Positions 7,919 through 15,841 of a DNA stretch of 64,000 nucleotides are shown here, one piece after another (the stretch's first letter is position 1; each line of letters opens with the position of its first letter). A program made the translations under genes and the position numbers. The stretch is from Dyella sp. (GTDB taxonomy: Bacteria; Pseudomonadota; Gammaproteobacteria; Xanthomonadales; Rhodanobacteraceae). The DNA lies in NCBI RefSeq assembly GCF_035503745.1, contig NZ_DATJTC010000002.1, positions 14,736 to 78,735 on the forward strand. Reading direction: 5' to 3'. A model generated the notes under the pieces. The model was not told the origin of the DNA. It saw only the letters and a list, made by a program, of their open reading frames with translations, and made no database searches.

Positions 7919-8151
7919 AGGCAGGTTTGGACTTTGAGGGGTTCCGAGTACCTAGGGCAGCCTGGTCGTTCAATGGCTCGATCCACGCTTTATTCAACGC
8001 CAGTGCGAGCGGCAGTTGCGACGCGGACGGCAACCAGGTGCAGGGCATGGGCGGATTAGGTATCCAACGGCAGTTAGGTTGCGACGTGATCAATCGCTTG
8101 TGCAAACCATCGACAACTCCAATGACACGAACTGACAGGGATATCAAATGA
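7915..8151 (+). CDS. hypothetical protein (78 aa), ATGA-coupled on both sides
   Basis: Start overlaps the upstream stop and stop overlaps the Rhs start; no clear RBS; may be a frameshifted continuation of the upstream ORF. Confidence 0.3.
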   Translation: MKAGLDFEGFRVPRAAWSFNGSIHALFNASASGSCDADGNQVQGMGGLGIQRQLGCDVINRLCKPSTTPMTRTDRDIK

Positions 8152-11100
8152 CTCGTATTTTTGGACTGATTCTCGGTGCGCTGTTGGCTGTTTCTTGCAG
8201 CGCCATTTCGATAAACGCGCATGCCGCCGATCAATCTGGTACGTATGAGACTCAAGGTGAGGCATATGCAGCGTGTAATGGGTTTGTTGCGTGGTTGAAT
8301 TCGCACGGACCTCTGAGTCCACCTTACTACTACACGTGCGAGGATGTGGTTCGCGGATCTTCTCCGCCTAGTCCACCTTGTCTAGGCAAGCCATTTGAAG
8401 GCGTAAATTACAGCTATGCCTATACGGTTTATTCCGAGCCAAATCATGACGATGGTGGTTGGGCGGGTTGGTACTTCTGGTGCGCTCCTACGTTTAGCCC
8501 AAGCAAGAACAATGGCTGCTCCTGTAGCGTAGCGGGTGACCCCATCAATCTGGGTACCGGTAACGAATACGAGGATCAAAAGGATTACTCATCCAGTGAC
8601 TCTCTACGGTTCGAACGCTACTACAACAGCAGCAATTCGATTACCCCGACCAACATCGGCGCGCAGTGGCTGGATAATTACGACCGCAGCATTCAATATC
8701 AGACCAGCACCACCCCTGTCGCGACTGTTTTTCGACCCGATGGGAAAGAGTTTGCCTTCCAGAAGGTCAATGGGGTGTGGGCCGCTGATCCAGATGTCAG
8801 CGATACGCTCACTGAGAGCGACAATGCCCTAGGCCAGGTTCAAAGCTGGACATATTTCGATGCCCAGACGCAGCAATACGAAAATTACAACGCAGGCGGC
8901 GCGCTAACCTCGATCGTTGATCTGAGCGGTCAAGTTACAACACTGACGTATAGCGATGGGACGACACCCACGACCATCGCACCGATGGCCGGGTTATTGA
9001 TTACCGTCACGGCACCCAGCGGGCGACAGCTCCAGTTCGTTTACAACGCCAGTAGCCAGATCACGCAGATCACCCTGCCTGACGGCGGCACGCTTGCGTA
9101 TGCATACGACACGTCTGGAAACTTGACTCAAGTGACCTATCCGGATGGCCGTACGCGCGTCTACAAGTACGACGAAAGTGGCAATGCCCCATCGGGGTCA
9201 CCGAATCTTTTGACGGGCATTATTGATGAGGCGGGGCAACGCTATGTGGACATCCACTACGACAGCCAGGGTCGTGCCATGTCGTCGCAGATAGGAGGCA
9301 TAGCCAATCTCACTCAGGTGGCTTACAACTCGGATGGAACGTCTGCCGTTACCTATCCGAGCGGAGTCCAAACCACGATTGGATTTGCAACCCCCTATGG
9401 CCGAGCGCAGATCGCGTCAGTGAGCCAGCCTTGCGGACCGGGTTGTGATCAGACGGCGGCGGCGCGTACGTATGACGCCAATGGCAATCCAGCGAGTGCC
9501 ACGGACTTCAACGGCAACGTCACTACCACCACCTACGACGTCAACGGCCTGCTCGATCAACAGATCGACGCGTCCGGATCTCCGGCCCAGCGCACCACCA
9601 ACTTCACCTGGAACACCACACTGCGCGTACCGCTGACGCGCACCGTGCTCGATGCCAACGGCAACACAGTGAGCAACACGCAATGGGTCTACAACGCCAC
9701 CGGCCAGACCCTGGCCCGCTGCGACATCGACCCGGCCAACAGCGCCGATAGCGGCTACAGCTGCTCGAACACCGGCGCGGTGCCGGCCGGCGTGCGCCGC
9801 CGCACCTACACCTACTGCACCGCCGTCGGAAGTAACTGCCCGCTGGTGGGCCTGATGCTCACCGCCACCGGCCCCCGTACCGATCTCACCCAGACGACGA
9901 GCTACAGCTACTACACCAGCAGCAGCACGACGGGTTGCGGCACGCCCGGCGCCGCCTGCTACCAGCCCGGCGATCTCTACCAGGTCACCGACGCCCTGGG
10001 CCACGTCACCACCATCGCCTCCTACGACGCCGACGGCCGCATCACCCGCCTCACCGACGCCAACGGCGTCAACACCGATCTCACCTACACCCCGCGCGGC
10101 TGGCTCGCCTCGCGCACGGTGGGCGGGGCCACCACTCGCTTCACCTATACCGCCTACGGGGCCGTGCAAACCGTCACCGATCCCGATGGCGTCACCACCA
10201 CCTACGGCTACGATGCCGCCCATCGCCTGACCACCATCACCGATGCCCTGGGCAACACCATCCAGTACACCCTGGATGCCGCCGGCGACAAAACCGCCGA
10301 ACAGGTCTATGACTCGTCGGGCACCTTGCACCAAAGCCTCACCCGCACCTTCAACACCCTGGGCCAGCTCACCAGCGTGGTCGATGGGCTTAGCCACACC
10401 GTGTTCAACGCCAGCGCCACGGGCAGCTACGACGCCAACGGCAACCTGATCCAGAGCAGCGACGGCCTGGGCATCGCGCGCCAATTGGGCTACGACGCCC
10501 TGAACCGCCTGGTGCAGACCCTGGACAACTACAACGGCAGCGACCCTGCAACGAAGAACACCACCACCCAGTACAGCTACGACAGCCTGGACCGCCTCAC
10601 CCAGGTCACCGACCCCAGCAACCTCGCCACCACCTACAGCTACGACGGCCTCAGCGACGCCACCGGCCAGGTGAGCCCCGATACGGGCACGACCAGTCGC
10701 ACCTTCGATGCCGCCGGGAATGTGCTGACACGGACCGACGCCAAGGGCATCACCGCCAGCAACACCTACGACGCACTGGATCGGCTTGTCAGCACCCGCT
10801 ACCCCGACAGCACGCAGAACGTTACCTACAGCTACGACGATCCCAACGGCACCACCGGCTGCAGCACCAGCGATCCGGTCGGCCGGTTGACGCGGATCAT
10901 CGAAAGCGCCGTCACCACCGTCTACTGCTACGACGCCCGCGGCAACGTGATCCAGAAACAACAGATCACCAGCGCCGGCACCGACACCACCGGCTACGCC
11001 CTCACCAACGCCGGCCGCCTCAGCGGCATCGTCTACCCCGACAGCACCCTGGTCAGCTACAGCCGGGATGGCGATGGGCGCATCACCGGCATCAGCGTGA

Positions 11101-12614
11101 CGCCGCCCAGCGGCAGCGCCGGCACGGCGGTGAGCGCGGTCACCTACCAGCCCTTTGGCCCGGTCAGCGGCTACACCCTGGGCAACGGCCAGCAGATCGC
11201 CCGCACCTACGACGCCAACTACCGGCTGACGGACCTCACCAGCCCCGCGTTCACCCTGCACGTGGCACGCGATGCGATGGGCGACATCACGGCCATCGGC
11301 AACAGCCCCGGCGCCAGCCCGGCGACGGAGACCTATAGCTACGACCCGCTATACCGCCTCACGGCGGTGACGGAGGCCAACGGCACGACGCTGGAAAGCG
11401 TCACCTACAACCAAACGGGTGATCGCCTGACCAAGACCGGCAGCGGCCTCGCTACCGGCACCTACAGCTACACCCCGAACACGCATCAACTCATTGCCAC
11501 GGGCAACGCCACACGAACGGTCGATGCGGACGGCAACACCACGGCGATCAGCGAAGCCGGCAGCACGTATGGCTTTGGGTACAACGACCGCAACCGCATG
11601 AGCACCGCGCAACTGGGTGGGAGCACGGTTGCCAACTACACCTACAACGCGCTGAACCAGCGCATCCAGAAGGTTGCCGGCAGCAACGCCGAGCGTTACG
11701 ACTACAACGAAGGCAGTGGGATACTTGCCGAATACGGTGCTACCAACCGGGACTATATCTGGATGGATGGCATTCCGGTGGCCAACGTGGACACGGCCAA
11801 TGGCACAAGCACGATCGCTTACGTCACCGCCGACCAGTTAGGCACGCCACGCGCCATTGCAGACAGTTCCGGAAACACCGAGTGGCAGAATGCCTACCAG
11901 GGTAATCCGTGGAACGAAGTAGCGCCGACGAGTAGCGGTTATGTCTATAACCTTGGGTTCCCAGGGCAGTATTTCGACGCCGAAACGGGGCTCAGTTACA
12001 ACGTCAATCGTGATTACGACTCAAGCACTGGGCGGTACGTGCAAAGTGATCCGTTTGGTCTGAATGGTGGTCTAAGTACGTACGCATATGCCATCAGTGA
12101 CCCACTGAGTACATTTGACTCTCTCGGTCTCCGCCCATTGACCGCCGGTGAAGTTGCGATGCTTACTCCGATTTTCAACAATACAGTAAATTTTTCGCAG
12201 GTCGATATCGAATCGGGCACAGATGGTGATTTTCGCGCAGCCATACCACTGGCTAACGGTGATGCCGTAACGATAAACAACACGATTCACTTTCCATCAT
12301 CGCAGTACCTGCCGGACTTCTCACAGGGTGACTTGAGTGATCAGGCGTGGCTTGCACACGAAGTGACACACATTTTTCAGCACCAAAATGAACCGGGCTA
12401 CACATACGGAAAAGCCATGAGAGAAACGTGGAAGTATGGCAAGCATGTCTACGACTACTCGCTGACAGAACACAAATGCTTCACTGATTACCGATACGAG
12501 CAGCAAGCTGCGATAGTCCATGACTACTTCGTTGCCTTGCATCAAGGAACTCCTGATCTGAGCGGATTTGAAAATTTGCTTGGTCCTATGGGCCTTGGCA
12601 TGAACCACAATTAA
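8148..12614 (+). CDS. rhs: Rhs/YD-repeat polymorphic toxin with N-terminal signal peptide, DUF6531-like domain and C-terminal HEXXH metallopeptidase
   Basis: Signal peptide MTRIFGLILGALLAVSCSAISINAHA; GDPINLGTGN...FERYYNS; many YD repeats; core YNLGFPGQYFDAETGLSYNVNRDYD...DPFGL...DSLGL; C-terminal AHEVTH and YEQQA. Confidence 0.93.
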   Translation: MTRIFGLILGALLAVSCSAISINAHAADQSGTYETQGEAYAACNGFVAWLNSHGPLSPPYYYTCEDVVRGSSPPSPPCLGKPFEGVNYSYAYTVYSEPNHDDGGWAGWYFWCAPTFSPSKNNGCSCSVAGDPINLGTGNEYEDQKDYSSSDSLRFERYYNSSNSITPTNIGAQWLDNYDRSIQYQTSTTPVATVFRPDGKEFAFQKVNGVWAADPDVSDTLTESDNALGQVQSWTYFDAQTQQYENYNAGGALTSIVDLSGQVTTLTYSDGTTPTTIAPMAGLLITVTAPSGRQLQFVYNASSQITQITLPDGGTLAYAYDTSGNLTQVTYPDGRTRVYKYDESGNAPSGSPNLLTGIIDEAGQRYVDIHYDSQGRAMSSQIGGIANLTQVAYNSDGTSAVTYPSGVQTTIGFATPYGRAQIASVSQPCGPGCDQTAAARTYDANGNPASATDFNGNVTTTTYDVNGLLDQQIDASGSPAQRTTNFTWNTTLRVPLTRTVLDANGNTVSNTQWVYNATGQTLARCDIDPANSADSGYSCSNTGAVPAGVRRRTYTYCTAVGSNCPLVGLMLTATGPRTDLTQTTSYSYYTSSSTTGCGTPGAACYQPGDLYQVTDALGHVTTIASYDADGRITRLTDANGVNTDLTYTPRGWLASRTVGGATTRFTYTAYGAVQTVTDPDGVTTTYGYDAAHRLTTITDALGNTIQYTLDAAGDKTAEQVYDSSGTLHQSLTRTFNTLGQLTSVVDGLSHTVFNASATGSYDANGNLIQSSDGLGIARQLGYDALNRLVQTLDNYNGSDPATKNTTTQYSYDSLDRLTQVTDPSNLATTYSYDGLSDATGQVSPDTGTTSRTFDAAGNVLTRTDAKGITASNTYDALDRLVSTRYPDSTQNVTYSYDDPNGTTGCSTSDPVGRLTRIIESAVTTVYCYDARGNVIQKQQITSAGTDTTGYALTNAGRLSGIVYPDSTLVSYSRDGDGRITGISVTPPSGSAGTAVSAVTYQPFGPVSGYTLGNGQQIARTYDANYRLTDLTSPAFTLHVARDAMGDITAIGNSPGASPATETYSYDPLYRLTAVTEANGTTLESVTYNQTGDRLTKTGSGLATGTYSYTPNTHQLIATGNATRTVDADGNTTAISEAGSTYGFGYNDRNRMSTAQLGGSTVANYTYNALNQRIQKVAGSNAERYDYNEGSGILAEYGATNRDYIWMDGIPVANVDTANGTSTIAYVTADQLGTPRAIADSSGNTEWQNAYQGNPWNEVAPTSSGYVYNLGFPGQYFDAETGLSYNVNRDYDSSTGRYVQSDPFGLNGGLSTYAYAISDPLSTFDSLGLRPLTAGEVAMLTPIFNNTVNFSQVDIESGTDGDFRAAIPLANGDAVTINNTIHFPSSQYLPDFSQGDLSDQAWLAHEVTHIFQHQNEPGYTYGKAMRETWKYGKHVYDYSLTEHKCFTDYRYEQQAAIVHDYFVALHQGTPDLSGFENLLGPMGLGMNHN

Positions 12615-12628
12615 GAGAGGGACGATTG

Positions 12629-13027
12629 ATGAAGTTCATTTCAAAGGTCTGCGTTGCCCTGTTATTTGTCGTCTTACTTTGCGGGCTCTCATCTCGATTC
12701 GCTATCGTGGTATCTCAGTCACAAGGTCAAGCACCCTCTTTTGTAATCAAAAGGACAAGCCATGGCCTACTTGGTGAAAGCGTTGAAATCAACTCGTTCT
12801 CCGTAGTCAAGAAGAATGACGCCGGGCAGTGGGACTATAAGCATCCCGTCTGGGCATTCGATCTTCCTCCTGGCACGGGAAAAGAGTTGTCAAAAGTCAA
12901 TTATGGCCAAGTCCCTGCGGGTTTCATTGAAAGAACAAAGGCATTAAAGCTAACTAGTGGTATTACATATTTGGTGCTTGGTTTTGGTCTTGGATCTGAT
13001 GGTTCTGTCCAATTCGTTGCCAAATGA
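12629..13027 (+). CDS. candidate cognate immunity protein, exported
   Basis: 14 bp after the Rhs stop, GAGG RBS, N-terminal hydrophobic stretch, low GC. Confidence 0.7.
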   Translation: MKFISKVCVALLFVVLLCGLSSRFAIVVSQSQGQAPSFVIKRTSHGLLGESVEINSFSVVKKNDAGQWDYKHPVWAFDLPPGTGKELSKVNYGQVPAGFIERTKALKLTSGITYLVLGFGLGSDGSVQFVAK

Positions 13028-13131: not shown

Positions 13132-13431
13132 TCAAGCGGACATTTCAGAAGTAGAACTTTTGGCGTAGTGATCGCGATATTCGGCCGGCGTCATAGCGCC
13201 GAGTGCATCATGGGGACGTTGCTCGTTGTAGTCGATGAGGAACTGCCACGTGGCCTCGCGCACGTCGTCGAGACGGGTGAAAAGGTATTGATCGAGCACC
13301 TCTTCACGATAGGTGCGGTTGAAGCGTTCGATGTAAGCGTTCTGGTTCGGCTTTCCCGGCTGGGTGTACCGGATGGCCATGCCATGCGCCTTGGCCCATT
13401 GCGTGAACACTTCGCCAAGGAACTCCGGCCC
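13132..13431 (-). pseudogene. IS3 orfB 3' part (GPEF...GKPNQNAYIERFNRTYREE)
   Basis: Integrase-core C-terminal motifs; separated from the 5' part by IS110. Confidence 0.9.
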
Positions 13432-13523
13432 ATAGTACATCTGGAAGTATGGTTAGCAGATGGGCAGTCACCGTCATTGAGATCATCCTGAGGGTTCTCA
13501 CACGCCTTAGGAGTTCAACGACG

Positions 13524-14801
13524 ATGACTGCCCCTACTGATGCTACGCCCGTTGCCACCTGGGTGGCGATTGATATCGCCAAACGCCACCATGCGGTGTT
13601 GATCGAAGTGCCGGATGAGAAGCGCCGACGTTTTAGGATGGCTAGTTCATCTGAAGATCACCAAGCATTGGTCGCATTGCTCCACTCATTACCTCAGCCC
13701 ATCCGGGTCGCCATGGAGCCGACTGGTGACTGTCACCGCACTTTGGCCTATCGGCTGGTTGATGAAGGTTTTGACGTTTTCCTCGTTTCATCGATTGCCG
13801 GGGCTCGCTATCGAGAGGCCATGTTCAACTCGTGGGACAAGAACGATCCCAAGGACGCAAGCGTGATCATGGCCTTGCTCAAGCAGGGGATGACGATGCG
13901 TTATGTCGATCCACTCGTAGCGGGGCATCATGGCTTGCAGGAGCTGTCCAAAACGTATTACCAGATTAGCCTTGCTCGCACACGGCTGCAGCACAGCCTT
14001 CTAACCCATTACCTTCCACTGTATTTTCCCGAGATGGAGCGCTACTTCAACACGTCTCATGCAGATTGGTTTGTTCGCTTCCTGCTCCGGTTTCCCACTG
14101 CCGCTTCGGTTCATCGACTCGACCGCGAAACCTTCCGGCAACAAGCCTGGGAACTGGTGGGAAGAAAGGTGAATAAGACAACGTGGCTAAGCGAATTGTA
14201 CGATTGTGCAGGCCACAGTATCGGTTTACCCGTTGCTGAGGACTCACTGGCGATCACGACCTTTCGCCTTCAACTTGAGCGATACCAAGTACTGATTGAG
14301 CAGCGCGACGCTTTGTCCGCACAAGCCCATCAACTTTTGAATGGCAACCCCGATTATGACGTCCTGTGTTCTCTCCCAGGCGTGGGACCAGTCATCGCGT
14401 TGACCATCTTGGCTGAGGCCGGCGACATGCGTCGCTTTGCTCATCATCGACAATTTCTCAAGTACTGCGGACTGGACCTGGCCAAGTCTCAATCAGGCGA
14501 ACGCCGCGGTCAGGAGCGCTTGTCCAAACGAGGCAATGCGAGACTCCGTTTTGCCTTTTGGTTTGCGGCCACTATCGCTGTGCGGATGCGTGAAAACAGC
14601 TTCCGAAACAAGTATGAGCGCTATATCCAAAATGACCCGAAAAATGCTGATCGAAAACGTAAGGCGCTCACCGCCGTCGCTGCCAAAATGGCGCGCGTCG
14701 CTTATGGATTAGTCAAGCATCAGACCCTTTACCGCTGTTACTTCGAGACCGCTTTACCCCGTGGATCGATCCCGCTCAGTAGGGCCGTTGGGACCGCTTA
14801 G
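13524..14801 (+). CDS. IS110 family transposase/recombinase (425 aa)
   Basis: AGGAG RBS; DEDD RuvC-like motifs AIDIAK, MEPTG, KNDPKDA; C-terminal LPGVGP...SQSG...SKRGNARLR. Confidence 0.95.
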   Translation: MTAPTDATPVATWVAIDIAKRHHAVLIEVPDEKRRRFRMASSSEDHQALVALLHSLPQPIRVAMEPTGDCHRTLAYRLVDEGFDVFLVSSIAGARYREAMFNSWDKNDPKDASVIMALLKQGMTMRYVDPLVAGHHGLQELSKTYYQISLARTRLQHSLLTHYLPLYFPEMERYFNTSHADWFVRFLLRFPTAASVHRLDRETFRQQAWELVGRKVNKTTWLSELYDCAGHSIGLPVAEDSLAITTFRLQLERYQVLIEQRDALSAQAHQLLNGNPDYDVLCSLPGVGPVIALTILAEAGDMRRFAHHRQFLKYCGLDLAKSQSGERRGQERLSKRGNARLRFAFWFAATIAVRMRENSFRNKYERYIQNDPKNADRKRKALTAVAAKMARVAYGLVKHQTLYRCYFETALPRGSIPLSRAVGTA

Positions 14802-15026
14802 GATCCTGTAGATAATGCTCGGACCTTCCACGGGTTCTCCATGCTGTTTTAGGCACGTTCGAGGCCGCTTCGGACCTCGTGTTCACTATGGTTAGATTAG
14901 GAGACCTTGACGACGTGGAAGCCCATGGGACATCGCGGATGAAGGTTGCGGTAGTTGTCCAACAGACGCTAAAAGCGGCTGCGCATTGCTGTAACCTGAT
15001 TACGTACTTGACTCCAGAGTTAGCAC
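14802..15026 (+). ncRNA. putative bridge/seek RNA in the IS110 downstream non-coding end
   Basis: 225-bp non-coding end; nested stems enclosing an internal loop with segments matching the element's donor junction. Confidence 0.55.
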
Positions 15027-15587
15027 GTTGTCCGTTCGTAGCACTTGAGGCAACGCACGCTCCTGGGCGATACGCTCGAAGATGCGCACCAAGCGTGCCG
15101 ACGTGATCGAGGTATCGATCTCGATATGCACAGCCTCGCGATTAAAGTCATCGACGATGTTGAAGGTACGCAATGGGCGCCCGCAGATCAGGGCATCCAG
15201 CATAAAGTCGGCCGACCACACCATGTCCGGGCGCTCCGGCACGTACAAGGGCACACGTTCACGCTTGGGCAAGCGCCGCGTCGCGGCCCGGCGCAGGTTG
15301 AGTTTCATGTCACAGTACACCCGGTAAATACGCTTGTGGTTCCATTGCGGATGGGTTCTTTCAAGGATCTGGCAACACTTGTCGAAGCCGCGGCTAGGCT
15401 TGGCCTCGATCAACTTGGACAATGCCGCGATAACCTCAGCGTCCCGCACCGTCCAATCCAATGGCGGCGCGTACCACGCCGCGCGGGACAGGCCGACGCA
15501 GTCGCAGGACCGGCGCAAGGGGCGTGCATGCACCTCAACGAGAAAACGCACCGCCTCGCGCTTCTGCGCCGGCCCTACAATTTTTTT
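15027..15587 (-). pseudogene. IS3 orfB 5' part
   Basis: HTH_21-like region, WNHKRIYRVY, WSADF, RTFNIVDDFNRE, QVLRTDN; begins at the A7 slippery site 15581-15587. Confidence 0.9.
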
Positions 15588-15841
15588 GCGATCAGGTCCT
15601 TCATCGCCGCATTGTCCAGCGCCAGCTCGGCATACATTCGCTTGAGCTTGGCGTTCTCCGCTTCCAGCTCCTTGACCCGTTTCAGGTCCGAAGCGTCCAT
15701 GCCCCCGTACTTCGATTTCCACTGGTAGTACGTCGCCGAGCTGATCCCCGCCTGCCGGCACAAATCCTTTACCGGTACACCGGCATCACCCTGCTTGAGA
15801 ATCGAGACGATCTGCGCCTCGCTGAATTTGGATTTCTTCAT
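15575..15841 (-). CDS. IS3 orfA
   Basis: MKKSKFSEAQIVSILKQ...GISSATYYQWKSKYGGM...LKRMYAE; GGAGG RBS. Confidence 0.93.
   Translation of the reverse strand: MKKSKFSEAQIVSILKQGDAGVPVKDLCRQAGISSATYYQWKSKYGGMDASDLKRVKELEAENAKLKRMYAELALDNAAMKDLIAKKL

Follow-up and report, generated by a model that had tools for sequence, protein, structure and literature searches.

A candidate bridge RNA that begins inside the recombinase gene of an IS110-family element inserted in an IS3 transposase gene

In the insertion sequence (IS) IS621, the core takes part in all four pairings of the bridge RNA, or seekRNA, and the target loop of this RNA lies ahead of the donor loop (Durrant et al. 2024, PMC11208160). The IS1111 enzymes, of 330-350 amino acids (aa), form a separate clade, and their elements carry sub-terminal repeats of 7-17 bp (PMC11187229). 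ISEc21 has been shown experimentally to be RNA-guided, and its target is the stretch of codons surrounding the second catalytic Asp of IS3-family transposases (PMC11187229). In the published survey, about 14% of IS110-group elements, among them the cluster of ISMex12, ISYps2 and ISRel25, were left without a bridge RNA (PMC11208160). In Supplementary Table 5 of that work (PMC11208160), these three form one cluster, in group IS110, with an empty entry under 'Detected Bridge RNA End', where ISEc21 reads LE, and ISEc11, ISPa11 and IS650 read RE. Here we describe a relative of that cluster in Dyella sp. (assembly GCF_035503745.1, contig NZ_DATJTC010000002.1), within a window of 64,000 nucleotides (positions 14,736 to 78,735 of the contig) whose own numbering is used throughout. 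Comparison with its relatives indicates that the plus strand at about 14757-14929 very probably encodes a two-loop bridge RNA of IS621 layout, which would guide the 425-aa IS110 recombinase of the element.

The IS110-family element occupies positions 13432-15026 on the plus strand (1,595 bp). It splits orfB of an IS3-family element exactly between an Asn and a Gly codon, without target duplication. Because the interrupted IS3 frame reads LRTDN|GPEF across the gap, the ends can be set at 13432 and 15026 and the empty site at GGCC-C|G-TTGTCC, with an ambiguity of 1-2 nt at the core (C13431/A13432 on the left, C15026/G15027 on the right). The host IS3 lies on the minus strand at 13132-15841. A genome search for further copies of the IS110 element or of the host IS3 returned none; as both are single-copy in their own genome, the empty site was deduced from the reading frame and from relatives. 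The part that follows the recombinase gene, tnp, measures 225 nt against 92 nt for the left end, which places the longer non-coding part downstream of tnp. The components of the element and of its insertion site are the following.

13524-14801, plus strand: tnp, DEDD recombinase of 425 aa
13432-13523, plus strand: left end, 92 nt
13432-13438, plus strand: right-donor half, (A)TAGTAC; the left end starts RTAGTAC in beta- and gammaproteobacterial relatives
13440-13445, plus strand: sub-terminal repeat TCTGGA, a 6-bp inverted match to TCCAGA at 15013-15018, each 8 nt from its tip
13509-13513, plus strand: ribosome-binding site AGGAG, in the left end ahead of tnp
15008-15026, plus strand: conserved terminal block of the right end, with TTGACT (15008-15013), TCCAGA (15013-15018) and the left-donor half TTAGCA plus C
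13427-13431, plus strand: left target half, GGCC plus core C (codons G-P of IS3 orfB, which is on the minus strand)
15027-15032, plus strand: right target half, core G plus TTGTC (reverse complement of the D-N codons of IS3 orfB)
Target sequence: GGGCCGTTGTCC
15575-15841, minus strand: IS3 orfA (HTH_Tnp_1)
15000-15761, minus strand: N-terminal piece of IS3 orfB (rve)
13132-13440, minus strand: C-terminal piece of IS3 orfB (rve_3)

The enzyme is an IS110-family DEDD recombinase, in agreement with the initial annotation of this stretch, made from its letters alone, which had proposed a reprogrammable recombinase of 425 aa. It matches Pfam PF01548 (DEDD_Tnp_IS110, 9e-21) and PF02371 (Transposase_20, Tnp_20; 8e-27), and it scores 224 bits, for a cutoff of 140, with the NCBIfam model NF033542, 'IS110 family RNA-guided transposase'. 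It shares 52% identity with ISMex12-family proteins. An upstream in-frame ATG at 13449 would extend the product to 450 aa. The two tips of the element, (R)TAGTAC on the left (13432-13438) and TTAG(C/T)AC on the right (15020-15026), are direct rather than inverted near-repeats, in relatives as well. Between the left tip and the ribosome-binding site, a block at 13470-13505, GGGCAGYCAYCG...ATCATCCTGAGGGTTCTCACA, is kept among close relatives.

A scan of one genome per species yielded 80 related loci, most of them with 50-81% protein identity, in Gammaproteobacteria, Betaproteobacteria and other phyla; orthologues of the clade were found in Alpha-, Beta- and Gammaproteobacteria and in Acidobacteriota. 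In the aligned upstream and downstream regions, the left flank reads ...GAAYTCNGGNCC, followed by [A/G]TAGTAC at the left end, and the right end finishes ...TAGNNC ahead of the flank GTTRTC.... The string CC|GTT.TC is invariant in all 47 unique insertion sites of the relatives, whose elements share these ends. In the 46 loci with enough flank, the joined flanks restore a frame on the opposite strand as xDN|GxEF, the motif around the second catalytic Asp of rve (DDE) transposases, and the host genes are plainly distinct from each other (RTDNGPEF, HSDNGSEY, RSDNGKEF, LTDNGKSF). The same DN|G target is found in ISMex12, in eight other alphaproteobacterial or acidobacterial plasmid copies and in ISYps2. 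The clade thus specialises in the transposase genes of other insertion sequences. The left ends of the ISMex12-like, ISYps2 and L067 lineages start differently, with matching changes in their guides.

The RNA was delineated in an alignment (A1) of 38 sequences, made with MAFFT from positions 14752-14935 and their homologues, in which conserved blocks lie between covarying stems. The candidate, 173 nt in length, consists of two stem-loops with internal loops. A guide RNA downstream of the enzyme gene had been anticipated in the initial annotation, which confined it to the non-coding right end; it does lie downstream, but it starts about 45 nt ahead of the tnp stop codon and overlaps the last ~15 codons, so that its 5' third is inside tnp. 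Its predicted parts, and the hairpin that follows it, are listed below.

14758-14765, plus strand: segment U (CCCGUGGA), 5' half of the stem closing the target loop; codons P-R-G
14782-14788, plus strand: left-target guide GGGCCGU, sense of GGNC-CG-T (left target plus core); tnp codons R-A-V
14790-14807, plus strand: target-loop hairpin GGGACC-GCUUA-GG(A)UCCU; 95.6% paired, double changes in 4 of 6 pairs, also given by RNAalifold
14811-14817, plus strand: right-target guide GAUAAUG, antisense of the core and right target (C-G-TTGTC), two of its pairs being G:U wobbles; invariant in the family apart from variants that keep pairing
14825-14834, plus strand: segment M (CUUCCACGGG), pairing with U, which closes the target loop, or alternatively with D1
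14833-14840, plus strand: 5' strand of P2 (GGUUCUCC), the stem closing the donor loop
14851-14857, plus strand: left-donor guide AGGCACG, sense of right end AGCA plus core CG
14860-14879, plus strand: donor-loop hairpin CGAGGCCG-CUU-CGG(A)CCUCG; 89% paired, double changes in 6 of 8 pairs, also given by RNAalifold
14885-14890, plus strand: right-donor guide ACUAUG, antisense to core plus left end (C-A-TAGT)
14900-14906, plus strand: 3' strand of P2 (GGAGACC)
14914-14929, plus strand: segments D1 (CGUGGAAG) and D2 (CCCAUGGG), forming a small hairpin together or pairing with M and U, respectively
14963-14981, plus strand: hairpin CAGACGC-UAAAA-GCGGCUG of the spacer, the ~85 nt that separate the RNA from the terminal 20 bp and that are variable elsewhere

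Run unaided, RNAalifold returned the long-range stem U:M (14758-65 with 14827-34, plus an extension), the hairpins at 14790-14807 and 14860-14879, and D1:D2 (14914-18 with 14923-27), with double changes in 15 of its 30 pairs. When the structures were specified, 86-87% of the cells were paired, against 37-52% after sliding the partners by 1-3 columns; double changes were present in 20-21 pairs, and none of 500 shuffles reached the observed covariation score. G:U pairs are frequent, and therefore the fold fits an RNA of the plus strand only. The stem closing the target loop, CCCGUGGA (14758-65) with UUCCACGGG (14826-34), namely U:M, is 99.7% paired over the 38 sequences, with covarying pairs such as AU26/CG12 and UA24/CG7/UG7. 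The hairpin that it encloses contains the tnp stop codon (14799-14801). P2 reaches only 59-68% in the MAFFT alignment because the columns are misaligned rather than aligned by structure; in single-sequence folds of nearly all 59 relatives, a large internal loop separates an outer stem from a central hairpin, and the P2 sequences differ from one relative to the next.

Parts of this architecture had already been read from the Dyella sequence, and each string named then lies where it had been placed, namely the outer stem strands CTTCCACG (14825-14832) and CGTGGAAG (14914-14921), the inner stem strands GGTTCTCC (14833-14840) and GGAGACC (14900-14906), the hairpin CGAGG..CCTCG (14860-14879), the proposed donor guides TTAGGCAC (14849-14856) and ACTATG (14885-14890), and the proposed target guides GGGCCGTTG (14782-14790), GTTGTCC (14954-14960) and GGACA (14928-14932). 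The outer stem CTTCCACG/CGTGGAAG, which corresponds to M:D1, is paired in 90.5% of cells, and one of its pairs (columns 89/200) occurs as AU24/GC14 and is never mismatched. P2, recovered in the single-sequence folds mentioned above, corresponds to the inner stem GGTTCTCC/GGAGACC.

The unpaired strands of the second loop track the termini of the element that carries them. On the 5' side, the loop reads A(A/G)G-N1N2N3-G, and the right end of the same element finishes TAG-N1N2N3, then G. The triplet of the guide equals that of the right end in eight classes (CAC, TAC, TTC, ATC, CCC, TCC, CTC and GAC). Over 19 non-redundant pairs, 33 of the 38 N1N2 positions are identical, where 20,000 shuffles gave 14.1 +/- 2.8 (p <= 5e-5), a figure that relatedness inflates; at least six independent switches are visible. 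On the 3' side, the loop reads NNNN-AUG(G), the reverse complement of the C-R-NNNN with which the left end starts, again with six classes of matching changes: TAGT with ACUA or AUUA, TAAT with AUUA (L052), TAGC with GCUA (ISMex12-like elements), TAAC with GUUA (L087), TGAT with AUCA (ISYps2) and TTTT with AAAA (L067). Thus, both strands covary with the element ends across many relatives. The strings TTAG-GCAC and ACTATG, which the initial annotation had singled out for their sense/antisense layout, are real donor guides, and the covariation between guides and donor that it proposed to look for across homologues is present. As the tips are direct near-repeats, each donor-guide strand can pair in part with the other, as it often does in minimum-free-energy folds. 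We can confidently identify the second loop as the donor loop of a bridge RNA.

This covariation also bears on two other ways of accounting for the region. The conserved segment might be a feature acting at the DNA level or in cis, such as sub-terminal repeats bound by the recombinase, a terminator or attenuator of tnp, or an element stabilising its mRNA. IS ends do carry protein-binding sites, a 6-bp sub-terminal inverted repeat is present (13440-45 / 15013-18), the spacer hairpin follows (14963-81), and the fold has no thermodynamic signal. We nevertheless regard such an explanation as very improbable, given that the compensatory changes, with their many G:U pairs, point to selection for a plus-strand RNA fold, and that it is the unpaired loop strands, not the stems, that follow the termini of each element. 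Moreover, a promoter and terminator scan gave chance-level matches only, with no intrinsic terminator in the conserved region. Coincidence is the other possibility to consider: a GC-rich stretch of 266 nt will hold some 5-9-mers resembling the ends or the target, two of the strings initially proposed as guides (GTTGTCC and GGACA) are indeed chance matches, and the z-score of the fold is about 0. With covariation across more than 60 relatives in several phyla and a permutation p <= 5e-5, chance matches can be virtually discounted as the whole explanation.

The first loop is organised in the same manner, with the target in place of the element ends, and its assignment as the target loop is well supported. 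Its 5' strand is the left-target guide. An unchanged GCCGU is shared by 56 of 59 relatives, down to the synonymous third position of the Ala codon, and the corresponding proposal in the initial annotation, GGGCCGTTG, is therefore supported. Third-position entropy at conserved residues is 1.28-1.40 bits along tnp, averaging 1.3, and 0.6 bits in the last 12 informative codons, which make up the window of lowest synonymous-site entropy of the gene; the next lowest non-overlapping window is at 0.98 bits. The right-target guide on the 3' strand, GAUAAUG, had been overlooked. It pairs with C-G-T-T-R-T-C of the top strand, with U:G at the core G and U:R at the wobble position of the Asp codon; because U pairs with R at that position, one guide accepts both GTTGTC and GTTATC. 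All its variants keep pairing: GAUCAUG occurs with the flank GTG(A/G)TC (L023, L067), GACAAUG with GTTGTC (L084), and GAUAACG in ISYps2. The loop thus matches the family-wide target, and three independent changes in its right guide keep or improve pairing with the observed flank, one of them through a change of flank and two by converting a wobble into a Watson-Crick pair. The core of the target is C-G and that of the donor C-G/A, the left junction reading C-A here and in roughly 40% of relatives. CG ends the 5' strand of each loop, and an invariant AUG of each 3' strand faces C-R-T; at the second core base, G or A is tolerated both by the U that lies opposite it in the two 3' strands and by the G of the two 5' strands.

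Three further candidates were dropped. GTTGTCC (14954-60) lies in the variable spacer, where 3.9 of 53 relatives would be expected to carry GTTRTC or GAYAAC and 5 do. GGACA, which shares bases with the 3' end of a stem, shows no conservation of the kind seen in guides. A change in the left-target guide of L067, from CCGUU to CC(C)GUG, had looked like covariation with the flank, but ISMex12-like elements have GCCGUG with an unchanged GTTGTC flank. L067 (1232-1500, and 3010 onward) is a retargeted relative: its right-target guide is GAUCAUG and its flank GTGATC, its left end, CATTTTAC, is ~270 nt long, and its left flank, GCGCCG, has no obvious fit to its own left-target guide. Its joined flanks, read for the gene that was hit, yielded no recognisable frame.

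Several observations weigh against a complete two-loop bridge RNA. Folding energy is no better than that of shuffled sequence (z = +0.10 for the plus strand and -0.13 for the minus strand), and a scan with Rfam covariance models gave nothing relevant down to E = 10, so the case rests on comparative data. The left-donor guide of this element has one mismatch or bulge relative to its right end (AGGCACG versus AG-CACG), and M has two conserved and mutually exclusive partners, U and D1, so that either of two folds may form in vivo. The other points concern the target loop and would suit an RNA that guides the donor only, the DN|G target being read by the protein or through DNA-level features. GGGCCGU and GAUAAUG would then be kept as tnp codons and as part of an internal promoter (-10 GATAAT) driving a short RNA from near M. 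The target is near-invariant, and target-guide covariation is accordingly thin, amounting to a few events (the A-to-C change with a T-to-G flank, shared by the sisters L023 and L067, and the two wobble-to-Watson-Crick changes). The left-target guide lies within the conserved codons R-A-V, which makes its conservation partly a matter of the protein, and it matches no further than CGU. The combination of TTGGGA and, 17 nt on, GATAAT (14788-14816) fits the pattern of a sigma-70 promoter, and the conserved M:D1 pairing suits a short RNA beginning after the target loop. However, the promoter-like match occurs at the rate expected by chance (1 found, 1.1 expected), and the Ala codon is fixed even at its synonymous base. 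The arrangement is exactly that of the donor loop: the two target strands lie on either side of a covarying hairpin, and the stem that closes the loop covaries as well. The strands match both target halves in the IS621 orientation, with AUG opposite the core in the 3' strands of both loops. The guide changes that keep pairing, one of them with a changed flank, point in the same direction. We therefore consider a donor-only RNA unlikely and favour the two-loop bridge RNA.

If the two-loop bridge RNA is correct, transposition might proceed as follows. The RNA would be transcribed, processed and bound by the 425-aa DEDD recombinase. Its target loop would present GGGCCGU (14782-88), the sense of left target plus core, and, opposite it, the guide whose U:G wobbles would accept GTTGTC and GTTATC; its donor loop, closed by GGUUCUCC/GGAGACC, would present AGGCACG (14851-57) and ACUAUG (14885-90). 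The RNA-loaded enzyme would recognise the junction of abutted right and left ends in an excised circular intermediate, as well as the Asp-Asn|Gly codons of the second catalytic Asp motif of rve (DDE) transposases. Junction and target would be recombined at the shared C-G/A core without target duplication, and the net outcome would be an IS that lands in other ISs and inactivates them. Such an enzyme would in principle be reprogrammable through its guides.

The circle junction might also supply a promoter. As the initial annotation pointed out, TTGACT (15008-15013) lies 17 nt from TACATC (13436-13441) when the ends are abutted. Of 37 unique elements, 13 have TTGACT at this fixed place of the right end, and across the junction, 17 nt further on, the hexamer is TACAWN. 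A junction promoter made of a -35-like TTGACT and the weak -10 TACATC is plausible, if weak; the -10 is better in some relatives (TACAAT, TACATT). As for the spacer hairpin, GC-rich hairpins of differing sequence occupy the same place in most relatives, with no U-tract after them, and they could serve as a 3'-end or processing signal.

The pairing alternatives among U, M, D1 and D2 are a conserved property of these RNAs. D1:D2 is 79.5% paired, M:D1 90.5% and U:D2 89%, and the four-way complementarity is kept in the ISMex12-like L088 despite wholly different sequences (CCAGAUGGAAGG / CCUUCCAUCUGG / GAUGGAAG / CCAUCUGG). These pairings may form a three-way junction or a switch. Tentatively, and with more doubt than conviction, one can imagine a conformational switch between U:M with D1:D2, in which the target loop is closed, and U:D2 with M:D1, in which a long stem surrounds the donor loop. 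Ribosomes finishing tnp would melt U, which could couple maturation of the bridge RNA to translation of the recombinase; alternatively, the switch could let separate RNAs present the target and the donor loops in the synaptic complex.

Some observations on individual copies and on the surroundings deserve mention. In the Arenimonas caeni copy, the closest genome relative (L003, 1440-1560), the left end begins with a tandem duplication of its first ~56 nt, ...GGCCC|GTAGTACATCTGGAAGCATGC...CCAAGGTC|ATAGTACATCTGGAAGCATGC..., which brings the element to 1,650 bp; this might be the product of half-site or partial recombination. The ISMex12 copy on plasmid pCMU01 of M. extorquens CM4 (L083, 2830-2920) is apparently cut within the donor-loop region by ISMch1. 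As ISMch1 is IS3-like, an IS of the targeted kind would here be nested in the bridge-RNA gene of ISMex12 itself. Upstream of the nested ISs in Dyella (8148-13027) are a gene for a 1,488-aa Rhs-type protein and then a small exported open reading frame.

The layout of the candidate RNA is that of IS621. In each loop the left half and the core are represented in sense on the 5' strand, and the core and the right half in antisense on the 3' strand. Further points in common are the order of the loops, with the target loop first, a shared core dinucleotide, insertion that duplicates no target sequence, and a recombinase that combines DEDD and Tnp_20 domains. Unlike that of IS621, which lies in the left end upstream of the gene, the RNA proposed here is downstream and overlaps the last ~15 codons. 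The core is C-G (or C-A) instead of CT, the guides are shorter (6-7 nt), with G:U wobbles in the right-target guide, and the enzyme has 425 aa instead of ~326. The alternative pairing of U, M, D1 and D2 has not been described for IS621.

An RNA downstream of tnp, sub-terminal inverted repeats and an expected junction promoter are shared with the IS1111-type seekRNAs or right-end bridge RNAs (ISEc11, ISPa11, ISKpn4; Siddiquee et al. 2024, PMC11187229; Durrant et al., Fig. 6). We nevertheless rejected an assignment to IS1111 on the basis of the 425-aa enzyme, of the IS110 label of the named relatives and of the 6-bp repeat. The repeat is ~6 bp here (TCTGGA/TCCAGA) and 5-6 bp in other clades, and the overlap between RNA and coding sequence has not been reported for IS1111 elements. 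This overlap calls for caution in pipelines that look for bridge RNAs only in non-coding ends.

Like ISEc21, the element is an IS that hits ISs at the second catalytic Asp motif, but ISEc21 has an upstream non-coding region and RNA and a 358-aa enzyme. One ISEc21 copy sits in HSD|QGSHY in the orientation of the host gene, whereas the element here lies in DN|GxEF in the opposite orientation. The nucleotide targets differ, so that the unrelated ISEc21 and this lineage have converged on one catalytic motif, and the rve host range looks wider here (RTDNGPEF, HSDNGSEY, LTDNGKSF). The clade lives as a dedicated parasite on other transposons, and the wobbles of a 7-nt guide would let one RNA hit the Asp-Asn-Gly motif of many rve families.

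Among the described elements, ISMex12 and ISYps2 have the same DN|G flanks and the same GCCGU...GAUAAUG target loop. The donor guides of ISYps2 and of ISMex12-like relatives match their own ends, the ISMex12 copy that we examined being cut off within the donor loop. ISMex12, ISYps2 and ISRel25 are IS species distinct from the Dyella element: they have other ends (GTAGCAC or RTGATAC; TAGGAC or TAGTCC), and their guides have changed to match. The Dyella locus and its relatives place the candidate RNA downstream, starting inside the last codons of the recombinase, and give its guide code. They would add a large and widespread set of orthologues to the RNA-guided IS110 recombinases, which are in development as genome-writing tools. 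By these comparisons the mechanism appears to be a known one, found here in a lineage and in a 3', coding-overlapping arrangement that were previously without a detected bridge RNA.

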